A DNA stretch of 64,000 nucleotides, taken from Candidatus Giovannonibacteria bacterium RIFCSPHIGHO2_01_FULL_45_24. Its GTDB lineage: Bacteria > Patescibacteriota > Minisyncoccia > UBA11713 > 2-01-FULL-45-33. The position numbers and the translations under genes were made by a program. The stretch covers positions 17,995 through 81,994 of the forward strand of contig MFHE01000002.1 of assembly GCA_001778495.1 (NCBI GenBank), in the 5' to 3' direction. Shown here piece by piece: positions 37,604-38,856 of the stretch (its first letter is position 1; every line of letters begins with the position of its first letter). The notes under the pieces were generated by a model that was not told the DNA's origin, searched no databases, and saw only the letters and a program-made list of their open reading frames with translations.

Positions 37604-38856
37604 CGAAAAAGGAAAAGAAAAAAAGTAAGCCGAAAAAATCGGCCCGCCTTGACTCCCGTCTAGACTTGACGAGGCTGACGGCGAGGCAGGCCAAGAGGAT
37701 TAAAGCGCTCGCAAAAAAGCCCAAACGCGCGCCGTCGGGGTTAAGCAAGGCGGAGCTGAAAAAAGAATTCAGCGAGGAAAGGGTTGAGGCGCTCTTTAAA
37801 AAAGGCAAAGAACGCGGTTTTTTGACTTACGCGGAGATTCTTTCGGCTTTCCCGCACGTTGAGTACAATGTGATTTTTTTGGAAGACCTTTATTCTCGGC
37901 TGGAGGTGGCTGGCGTGGACGTGCTTGAAGGGATGGAGCTTTTGGAAGTTCCCATAGAAAAAAAAGCGGAAGGAAAACCGGGGCGCAAGAAATCGCGCCA
38001 AAGCGTTTTGGCCACCGAAGACATCCCCGCCGCCGACTCTGTGCAGATGTATTTGAAAGAAATCGGGCGCATACCCTTGATTTCGGGCGAAGAGGAAAAA
38101 GAGCTCGCTAAAAAAATTGAAGCCGGCGAGGAGGACGCCAAGAACCAGCTGGCGCAGGCAAATCTGCGGCTGGTGGTTTCCATCGCCAAAAAATACGTTG
38201 GGCGGACGCCGAACCTCACCATGCTGGATTTGATTCAGGAGGGGAATCTGGGGCTTTTCAGAGCCGTGGAGAAATTTGACTGGCGGAAGGGCTATAAGTT
38301 CTCAACCTACGCCACCTGGTGGATAAGGCAGGCGGTTACCCGCGCGATTGCCGACCAAGGGAAAACCATCCGCATACCAGTGCACATGGTTGAAACTATC
38401 TCAAAATATCAGCAGGTGAGACGGCGCCTTACGCAGGATTTGGGCCGGGAGCCGCTGGCGGAGGAATTGGCGGCCGAGATGAATGTTGAGGTGGAAAAAA
38501 TTCACCATATCCAAAAAATTTCGCAGGACACGGTTTCTTTGGAGGCGCCGGTAGGGGAAGACGACGAGGATTCAACGCTTGGCGACTTTCTTCCGGACGA
38601 AAAAATGCTCACGCCAGCGCAGGAGGCGGCGCGGAAACTGCTTAAAGACCACCTTCGGGAAATTATGGTTGACCTTATGCCCCGGGAGCAGAAGATTTTG
38701 CGCATGCGCTTCGGCTTGGACGACGGCATCACCCACACCTTGGAGGAAGTCGGGAAAGAATTCGGCGTGACCCGCGAGCGAATCCGCCAGATTGAAGCGA
38801 AAGCGATAGAAAAAATCCGCCAGCACCACAAAGTCATAAAATTGCATGAGTATTAA
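37600..38856 (+). CDS. rpoD: RNA polymerase sigma factor RpoD/SigA
   Basis: Region 2 ([14 protein letters not shown]) and region 4.2 ([20 protein letters not shown]). Confidence 0.95.
37642..37692 (+). repeat. 51-bp imperfect-palindrome element, in frame in the rpoD N-terminus
   Basis: GCCCGCCTTGACTCCCGTCTAGACTTGACGAGGCTGACGGCGAGGCAGGCC. Encodes [17 protein letters not shown]. Confidence 0.95.

Follow-up and report, generated by a model that had tools for sequence, protein, structure and literature searches.

What is a nearly identical stretch of 51 nucleotides doing inside the coding sequences of two different proteins? The question is raised by a stretch of 64,000 nucleotides (the window) of contig MFHE01000002.1 from Candidatus Giovannonibacteria bacterium RIFCSPHIGHO2_01_FULL_45_24, where the sequence GCCCGCCTTGACTCCCGTCTAGACT(T/C)GACGAGGCTGACGGCGAGGCAGGCC occurs once in the gene for the primary sigma factor RpoD and once in the gene for a cupin-type glucose-6-phosphate isomerase (PGI). 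The answer that we put forward, with a probability of roughly 70%, is that this repeat is a composite: a GC-rich hairpin element, miniature and non-autonomous, that is present as a nested dimer, behaves as selfish DNA and sits in frame within its host genes. The host genes and the parts of both copies are:

22447-23211, reverse strand: cupin-type glucose-6-phosphate isomerase (PF06560), 254 amino acids, first host gene
22663-22713, reverse strand: PGI copy of the composite, codons 167-183
22700-22713, 22676-22699 and 22663-22675, reverse strand: outer left, inner and outer right parts of the PGI copy
37600-38856, forward strand: primary sigma factor RpoD, 418 amino acids, second host gene
37642-37692, forward strand: rpoD copy of the 51-nt composite, codons 15-31, N-terminal to sigma region 1.1
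37642-37655, forward strand: left arm of the outer element, GCCCGCCTTGACTC, equal to the left part of the canonical 24-mer CCCGCCTTGACTCGGCGAGGCAGG of 55+ metagenome loci
37656-37679, forward strand: inner nested 24-nt copy, CCGTCTAGACTTGACGAGGCTGAC, set into the apex of the outer element at ACTC^GGCG
37680-37692, forward strand: right arm of the outer element, GGCGAGGCAGGCC

Two copies of one repeat in rpoD and PGI

The original prediction was made from the letters of the window, and its basic observations were reproduced. The two copies are identical at 50 of 51 positions, and 100 dinucleotide-preserving shuffles gave no match at all. Both copies stand in the same frame, as 17 codons reading ARLDSRLD(L/S)TRLTARQA, and the sole mismatch, at position 26, is non-synonymous (L versus S). 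The predicted hairpin potential is real but moderate: the rpoD and PGI copies have DNA folding energies of -12.5 and -13.3 kcal/mol (z = -3.0 and -2.4) and RNA folding energies of -23.8 and -24.2 kcal/mol (z = -3.0 and -2.3). The fold is one imperfect hairpin made by the pairing of the outer and inner arms, and imperfect terminal inverted repeats are present in the element. No further copy of either half is found within the window when up to three mismatches are allowed, and there is no other exact 51-mer in about 82 kb of the source contig (the window plus an extension of about 17 kb), which holds the two composites and two related mini elements. Exact sub-strings of the 51-mer have no match in collections of genome, viral and metagenome contigs, which do not return the source contig either and are therefore hardly informative on the source genome.

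Being short, GC-rich and palindromic, the repeat resembles a library linker, and one might suspect an artefact of assembly, adaptors or chimera formation. The chance of this is close to nil. The flanks are contiguous with those of orthologues, the two copies differ by one base, and the rpoD copy is identical across at least eight independently assembled contigs (ENA, JGI) from different projects; relatives of the element, described below, are also present in the closed genome CP066687.1 and in isolate genomes. Adaptor or linker contamination in particular is ruled out by the agreement of independent assemblies, the contiguous flanks and the closed and isolate genomes. The PGI protein with its insert is on record from 11 contigs, and all members of the 90% clusters of both RpoD and PGI keep the insert. 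Because it is identical in independent assemblies and kept throughout these clusters, the 51-mer is real and fixed in the sampled population.

In RpoD, where all sigma-70 regions are found, the insert lies in a lysine-rich N-terminal tail upstream of region 1.1, which begins at residue 59. At this copy, no promoter or terminator signal rises above shuffled sequence. In PGI, the PF06560 match stops at residue 167, exactly where the insert starts, and the HMMER alignment of solved archaeal cupin PGIs reaches only residues 16-161. An AlphaFold model of the protein (mean pLDDT, the predicted local confidence, 89; pTM, the predicted template-modelling score, 0.86) puts residues 167-183 into a loop of low confidence, flanked by strands 162-166 and 187-191 and with values below 50 at 180-182; in this model the insert thus appears to enlarge a hairpin turn outside the cupin core. 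Once translated, it would form a surface loop of 16-17 residues in PGI and an extra stretch in the disordered tail of RpoD.

Presence or absence in orthologues, a check proposed along with the original prediction, speaks for an inserted element. The PGI alignment has 21 sequences (the window protein and 20 orthologues), and the 17-residue insert is missing in 17 of the 20, including all close ones, among them those of 81-84% identity; the other three have different inserts at this position. Orthologues from Giovannonibacteria run contiguously across the site, which is empty in the sister loci L002 and L003. The closed sister genome CP066687.1 (651 kb) reads GAC GTC GGT GAA without interruption, compared with GAT-(51 nt)-GGC GAG in the window. 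The net gain over the empty site is 48 nt (16 codons and one replaced codon), and the outer G and CC of the 51-mer may be a variable terminal pair of the element or target bases. For RpoD, the only protein with an occupied site is the 92%-identical sister, which has a different and shorter member of 24 nt (GCCCGCCTTGCCGGCGGGCAGGCC). There the protein reads SARLAGGQAKR, from TCG-GCCCGCCTTG-CCGGCG-GGCAGGCC-AAG, and the first 10 and last 8 nt of this mini-hairpin equal the ends of the 51-mer. Remoter RpoD N-termini do not have the element; many of them carry short inserts of other kinds (PALPAGR, SLPAGRQ, ARAGG), and PRLDSARQA occurs in one.

Three more distant PGI orthologues (P0016, P0008, P0022/26) carry other inserts, initiated by GCCCGCC, at the identical nucleotide position. 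In the PGI orthologues of L001 (5933-6709) and L004 (564-1343), CCCGCC-initiated inserts of 39-60 nt occupy the same nucleotide position as the window element. The shared position means either a hot spot of insertion or an old insertion with later precise losses. It also brings in a different explanation of the two 51-mers, namely that the composite overwrote resident short members through template switching at short homologies or gene conversion, using the shared ends of 10-14 nt. Such overwriting would fit the sister rpoD, with its different member at the same nucleotide position and its identical ends of 10 and 8 nt, as well as the inserts in L001 and L004, and GC-rich hairpins are plausible sites of fork stalling. 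However, the nearest PGI orthologues, including that of the sister, are empty, so that a resident element in the direct ancestor has to be assumed in addition; arms of only 8-14 nt offer very little homology, and clean de novo insertions at empty sites elsewhere are left unexplained. We hold conversion to be unlikely as the source of the two copies.

The 24-nucleotide unit and the wider family

The structure of the repeat is clarified by its relatives. The inner copy is identical at 18 of 24 positions, and in register, to a canonical unit, CCGCCTTGACTCGGCGAGGCAGGC, and one locus carries CCGCCTTGACTCGGCGAGGCAGG, the sequence that remains when the central 24 nt are taken out of the 51-mer. On metagenome contig L225 the same architecture as in the window is found with a perfect inner copy, CCCGCCTTGACTC-(CCGCCTTGACTCGGCGAGGCAGGC)-GGCGAGGCAGG, again nested at ACTC^GGCG; L155 is a second nested case, and L151 has a head-to-tail pair. 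The 51-mer is thus a nested dimer in which a diverged 24-nt copy lies in the apical loop of canonical CCCGCCTTGACTC^GGCGAGGCAGG. The composite retains the outer ends and folds as one longer hairpin. What had been described as a 51-bp palindrome thus holds as a repeat, but not as the primary unit. The nested architecture explains the internal repeat of the peptide (ARLDS-RLDLTRLT-ARQA), and the two 51-mers share their frame because only three of the six frames of the composite are open. At the variable position the PGI copy retains the canonical C, from which it follows that the rpoD copy mutated after the duplication.

The unit belongs to a parent family with the ends CCCGCCT...GGCAGG and lengths of 18-48 nt, mostly 21 or 24, whose canonical forms are the 21-mer CCCGCCTTGCCGTCGGGCAGG and the 24-mer CCCGCCTTGACTCGGCGAGGCAGG. 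An alignment of about 27 kb of the window with the sister genome gave a list of every indel of 9 nt or more. This census contains clean GC-rich in-frame indels of 18 and 21 nt, with ends of the CCCGCCT/GGCAGG type and without target duplication. The sister has an additional 21 nt in groES (CCTGCCTCGTCGGCAGGCGGG), 21 nt at the counterpart of window position 15741 (CCTGCCCGACGGCAAGGCGGG) and 18 nt at the counterpart of 27403 (CCCGCCTGCGCGGGCAGG), and several family members were found within 39 kb of its genome. Small elements in frame in other genes of the window are:

15207-15227: 21-nt member CGCCTGCCCGTCCGGTAGGCG, which adds RLPDGQA in frame to the C-terminal tail of ribosomal protein S6 (rpsF); absent in the sister
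18630-18649: 20-nt perfect palindrome CCTGCCTGCCGGCAGGCAGG, which reads LPAGRQA in frame within the phosphoglucomutase gene; the version of the sister is shorter and different

A scan of the window for GC islands returned 167 of them, mostly ordinary coding sequence. One GC-rich stretch, 3678-3746, starts with GGCGGGCTTGACCCCGTTAGAGGTC, which by eye is about two-thirds identical to the 51-mer's left half, and closes with a second GGCGGGC; it has no Rfam or tRNA match.

Two large scans show how widespread the family is. Both used exact matching, so that their copy numbers are lower bounds and diverged members are missed. The 21-mer was searched as the exact pattern CCCGCCTTGCCGNCGGGCAGG in one genome per species, and was found at 120 or more genome loci, about half of them in low-GC genomes between unrelated flanks; the matches in high-GC genomes are probably chance. 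Among the matches listed, the low-GC genomes carry the 21-mer, mostly with N = T, between unrelated AT-rich flanks, and they come from many classes of Patescibacteria, from Bacteroidota, Ignavibacteria and Elusimicrobiota, and from low-GC Gammaproteobacteria. Of these low-GC copies, 46 of 65 lie in open reading frames (ORFs) that are 150 codons or longer; each of the six frames occurs, and the commonest peptides are LPDGKAG (31) and TRLAVGQ (7). Some of the matches in metagenome-assembled genomes (MAGs) from outside the Candidate Phyla Radiation (CPR) could be binning errors, though isolate and closed genomes carry the 21-mer as well: the Bacteroidota hosts include isolate Arenibacter genomes and a closed Flavobacteriaceae chromosome. 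The 24-mer subfamily was searched in metagenomes with the gapped pattern CCGCCTTGACTC-N(0-30)-GCGAGGCAGG, which gave at least 120 loci with a median GC of 0.41. Among the matches listed for this subfamily, the commonest form is CCCGCCTTGACTCGGCGAGGCAGG (at least 58 copies), longer forms vary only in the apical segment, and 75 of 124 copies lie in long ORFs of unrelated proteins, with four main frames: PASPSQGG (38), LPRRVKAG (15), RLDSARQ (12) and PALTRRGR (9). Neither subfamily was found in 2.9 million viral contigs, annotated plasmid and phage collections gave only partial matches at chance level (E of about 1-4), and no Rfam family matches at the elements.

These counts bear on the idea that RpoD and PGI both gained a functional peptide module of 17 residues, used in targeting or interaction. 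Both copies do share a frame, and the ORF stays open. However, the identity is at the nucleotide level (50 of 51) and the single difference is non-synonymous; the insert is missing in orthologues and forms a low-confidence loop in the PGI model; and when the peptides of the three open frames were concatenated and searched against 5.8 billion proteins, there were just six word-sharing candidates, none of which scored. Above all, at least four frames of the family give unrelated peptides, which effectively refutes a peptide module, and we give it almost no credence. Because several frames yield unrelated peptides, it is the DNA that is conserved and not the peptide. Stop codons are absent from all six frames of the 21-mer, five of the six frames of the 24-mer and three of the six of the composite, and lengths are mostly multiples of three. 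With regard to the original prediction, the search for further copies that it had suggested found the exact 51-mer nowhere else and its parent family in abundance (at least 120 loci per subfamily), and a common reading frame holds for the two 51-mers but not for the family, which is read in four or more frames in unrelated proteins.

The base preceding the 24-mer pattern is C in 97% of copies and the next one outward is G in 65%, while the base 3' of the element is a pyrimidine in 89%, giving the ends (R)CCCGCC and GGCAGG(Y). No flanking direct repeat is present at 85 of 107 copies, and five pairs of filled and empty sites show no duplication; insertion is between two adjacent nucleotides without target-site duplication. 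The sequence CAGG stands upstream of 13% of copies, an enrichment due to tandem copies. In several loci of Paceibacterota and others (L019, L048, L054, L097, L052 and L084) short repeats, tandem or direct and specific to the locus, flank the 21-mer, such as CAAGCTA in two to three copies or CTGAAAG in two; all of them are translated within genes, for instance those of a glycosyltransferase and of leucyl-tRNA synthetase (LeuRS). In Arenibacter isolates (L027, L041, L068, L078, L081 and L124) the 21-mer is part of a larger multi-copy repeat.

Might the sequence instead be kept by selection because it has a function as DNA or RNA? It could bind a protein, act as an uptake-type site or, in mRNA, form a hairpin that tunes translation or stability, and it would lie in coding DNA because intergenic space is almost lacking. 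In favour of such a motif, the 21-mer is kept without change in different classes of Patescibacteria as well as some Bacteroidota, Ignavibacteria and Elusimicrobiota, the rpoD copy forms a stable RNA hairpin (-24 kcal/mol) 42 nt into the gene, and repetitive extragenic palindromes (REPs) elsewhere bind gyrase and IHF and stabilise mRNA (PMC3733652). A selected site fits poorly with positions that differ between sister genomes, with nested and tandem copies, with the lack of any pattern relative to gene starts or ends, and with the negative Rfam, promoter and terminator results given above. A functional motif of this kind is, in our judgement, quite improbable.

The selfish in-frame element is the reading supported by the family as a whole, whose copies are dispersed, tandem and nested in many unrelated proteins and whose presence differs between sister genomes. 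More tentatively, and at rather less than even odds, the family could be an undescribed one of 21-24-nt 'nano-elements' that crosses phyla: multiples of three in length and free of stops as an adaptation to coding DNA in gene-dense genomes, inserted and excised seamlessly, able to nest in the loops of one another and to move as composites, and spread horizontally among Patescibacteria and on to Bacteroidota, Ignavibacteria and Elusimicrobiota.

How the elements might move

In the scenario that we propose, the composite was copied as a unit once the lineage of CP066687.1 had branched off, with either of the two sites or a third copy as the source, and would persist because it is nearly neutral. 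The most speculative step is the mobilisation itself, which might be carried out in trans, on single-stranded DNA, by a transposase of the HUH/Y1 type (IS200- or RAYT-like, RAYTs being the tyrosine transposases associated with REPs). Among the mechanisms considered, HUH/Y1 is the best fit because hairpins of about 20-50 nt are inserted and excised seamlessly and without duplication, because copies nest and stand in tandem and differ in presence between sister genomes, and because the composite moves with its outer ends intact. In single-strand transposition by HUH/Y1 enzymes (IS200/IS605, RAYT-REP), excision is seamless too. Even so, mobilisation of this family by such an enzyme has to be called doubtful, with a chance well below one half.

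RAYT-like genes are present in the window, and homologues were found in 6 of the roughly 240 loci that bear an element:

45696-46352: RAYT-like Y1 transposase gene, 218 amino acids, bearing the motifs HFHLLL and YIHLNP; HUH and Y motifs can be seen in its sequence
55459-56100: second RAYT-like gene, 213 amino acids, with NHYHLML and AYVNLN motifs

The first matches Pfam Y1_Tnp with 25.6 bits (cut-off 23) and NCBIfam REP_Tyr_transpos with 38 bits, under the cut-off of 80; for the second, a weak Y1_Tnp match is recorded for the same gene in locus L259. The hairpins that flank RAYT-like genes are lineage-specific, perfect and 22-23 nt long, and the window type is ...ATCSGAT.... Around the first gene there are inverted 23-nt hairpins, TGACCCAAATCCGATTTAGGGCA at 45646-45668 and TGACCCAAATCGGATTTGGGGCA at 46350-46372, with a third copy inside the gene at 45857-45879; the arrangement at 45646-46372 is REPtron-like, in a CPR genome. 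The second gene is flanked by the hairpins ACTTGGCTGTCCGACAGCCAAGT and ACTTAGCTGTCGGACAGCTAAGT (55420-55454 and 56093-56127), which have relatives at 55638-55660, 25224-25245 and 26144-26165. The only link between a RAYT and the family comes from the RAYT homologue of L072 (Paceibacterota, 5770-6610), which has the flanking hairpins TTGTCAAGGCGGTGCCTTGACA and the upstream repeats CCGGCAAGGCGG. Both have 10-12 nt (CCGCCTTGAC, CCGCCTTGCCGG) in common with the 21- and 24-nt elements, in the 5' part of the latter, and L072 is a possible lead to the cognate transposase. The MAG of L072 carries at least four copies of the 21-mer.

Several points weigh against selfish in-frame mobility. No transposase is linked to the family, and the RAYT-like genes examined, two in the window and those of six loci, are flanked by other hairpins. 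Lagging-strand-specific insertion by Y1 enzymes might be expected to leave an orientation bias, and the orientation of the elements is unbiased relative to local GC skew. In about 82 kb of the source contig there are two exact composites only and no other member of the 24-mer subfamily, which indicates low activity in the source genome. Different members share the exact nucleotide position in rpoD (window and sister) and in PGI (window, L001 and L004), which can be accounted for equally well by repeated transposition, by the conversion of resident elements or by a strong hot spot. Finally, translation of the insert is presumed.

Other palindromes of the window are of the RAYT-flanking type or of a different kind. 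In dnaG, at 36303-36350, two tandem perfect palindromes of 23 nt, ACTTAGCAATC(G/C)GATTGCTAAGT, are in frame and belong to the type that flanks the RAYT-like genes; at this place the sister dnaG has an unrelated stretch about 26 residues longer, and a second indel of 10 amino acids follows further along. Since palindromes of the RAYT type stand in frame in dnaG, a second repeat family also invades coding DNA in the window. The Toprim motif of dnaG contains a 35-nt palindrome (36851-36885) with perfect arms of 15 nt, TTTGACGCCGACTCG...CGAGTCGGCGTCAAA, which encodes the conserved motif; the peptide is unchanged in the sister, hence this is no obvious insertion. A 49-nt repeat, 96% identical, occurs at 1370-1418 and 53359-53407 with the arms AACATCCGATGTT and AACATCGGATGTT; it lies in a hairpin at 53351-53415 and is centred on TCSGA like the RAYT-associated hairpins. 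Two further perfect GC-rich hairpins have arms of 15 bp (GGACGCCGGACGTCC, loop AAGC, 42533-42566) and 11 bp (CCAGCCCCGAC, loop GCAT, 43131-43159).

Known elements, and what the family means

The original prediction had likened the repeat to the palindromic elements of Rickettsia (RPEs). These are Rickettsia-specific palindromic repeats of 105-146 bp that are fused in frame in conserved protein genes and also occur elsewhere (Ogata et al. 2000, reviewed in PMC2229807); they are tolerated at protein surfaces and viewed as selfish DNA that is neutral or slightly harmful (PMC2229807). The present elements are similar in their in-frame insertion into conserved genes and their absence from orthologues. 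They differ in their length of 18-51 nt, in their occurrence across Patescibacteria and beyond, in a 21-mer that is open in six frames, and apparently in sharing no sequence with RPEs. The comparison is therefore apt for the selfish in-frame behaviour but not for membership: by size and host, the family is not RPE. PARCEL repeats (PMC2996958) were considered too and are ruled out, being tandem amphipathic repeats of 25 residues.

Intragenic REPs come closer in size. They are hairpins of 20-40 nt (GTAG- and CGTC-tagged superfamilies, REPtrons) in tandem or grouped copies (Di Nocera et al. 2013, PMC3733652); inside genes, often genes for replication or repair, their dimers encode 20-30 residues, and mobilisation by Y1 enzymes (RAYTs) has been hypothesised (PMC3733652). 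The elements described here share with them the imperfect palindrome, the hairpin of 21-24 nt and the repetition (at least 120 loci per subfamily), but they have no terminal GTAG or CGTC tag (CGTC is found only in the centre of the 21-mer), a large fraction of them is coding and not extragenic, and one sequence is met in different classes and phyla, in contrast to REPs, most of which are confined to a species. Unlike in a REPtron, the family does not flank RAYT-like genes, the 10-12 nt shared with the L072 flanks being the nearest approach. Bacterial MITEs (miniature transposable elements with inverted repeats) that have open frames fused to genes, such as the 107-bp form of Correia, ERIC and YPAL (PMC2229807), and the QMITEs of Coxiella (PMC5896051) are 100-400 bp long, with duplications of TA or 2-11 nt. 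Like MITEs, members of the family are small and non-autonomous, bear inverted repeats at their termini and can be translated together with ORFs of the host; they are 5-10 times smaller and make no target-site duplication. Palindrome-associated elements derived from IS200/IS605 make no TIR-dependent duplication, have hairpin ends and insert 3' of a fixed tetranucleotide with a strand bias. In the present family there is no duplication and the ends form hairpins; the CAGG found upstream of 13% of copies traces to tandem copies, and there is no bias with GC skew.

Another parallel comes from yeast mitochondria, where GC clusters and 'byp' elements are short, GC-rich, palindromic and mobile and invade the coding DNA of a genome of lower GC. 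The ribosome skips byps, and their length need not be a multiple of three. The present family, in another domain of life, differs in being a multiple of three in length, open in frame and presumably translated. No published description of the family was found in a searchable literature of 8 million papers (by sequences, peptides, or REP, RAYT and MITE together with CPR), the coverage of which is incomplete, so that a prior description is possible.

To our knowledge, palindromic parasites that live in frame in coding DNA have been a textbook curiosity tied essentially to Rickettsia, together with scattered intragenic REPs. RPE-like behaviour is now seen in members of the Candidate Phyla Radiation as well, where the elements are five times smaller. 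Their streamlined genomes are hit in essential genes, among them those for the primary sigma factor, for GroES, for ribosomal protein S6 and for a glycolytic isomerase. One sequence of 21-24 nt recurs over classes and even phyla. If the reading is true, few known mobile DNAs would be as small, the lower size limit for mobile DNA would have to be redrawn, and essential proteins (RpoD, GroES, S6, LeuRS, PGI) would steadily receive loop insertions from these elements. They would account for part of the many short lineage-specific insertions in CPR proteins, would make recent exchange of DNA between uncultivated groundwater bacteria easy to trace by a sequence search, and would give natural maps of permissive sites for protein engineering. 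For annotation there is a warning as well: short GC-rich inserts such as PAGG, LPDGKAG, PASPSQGG or RLDSARQA in CPR proteins should be taken as scars of these elements and not as functional motifs.

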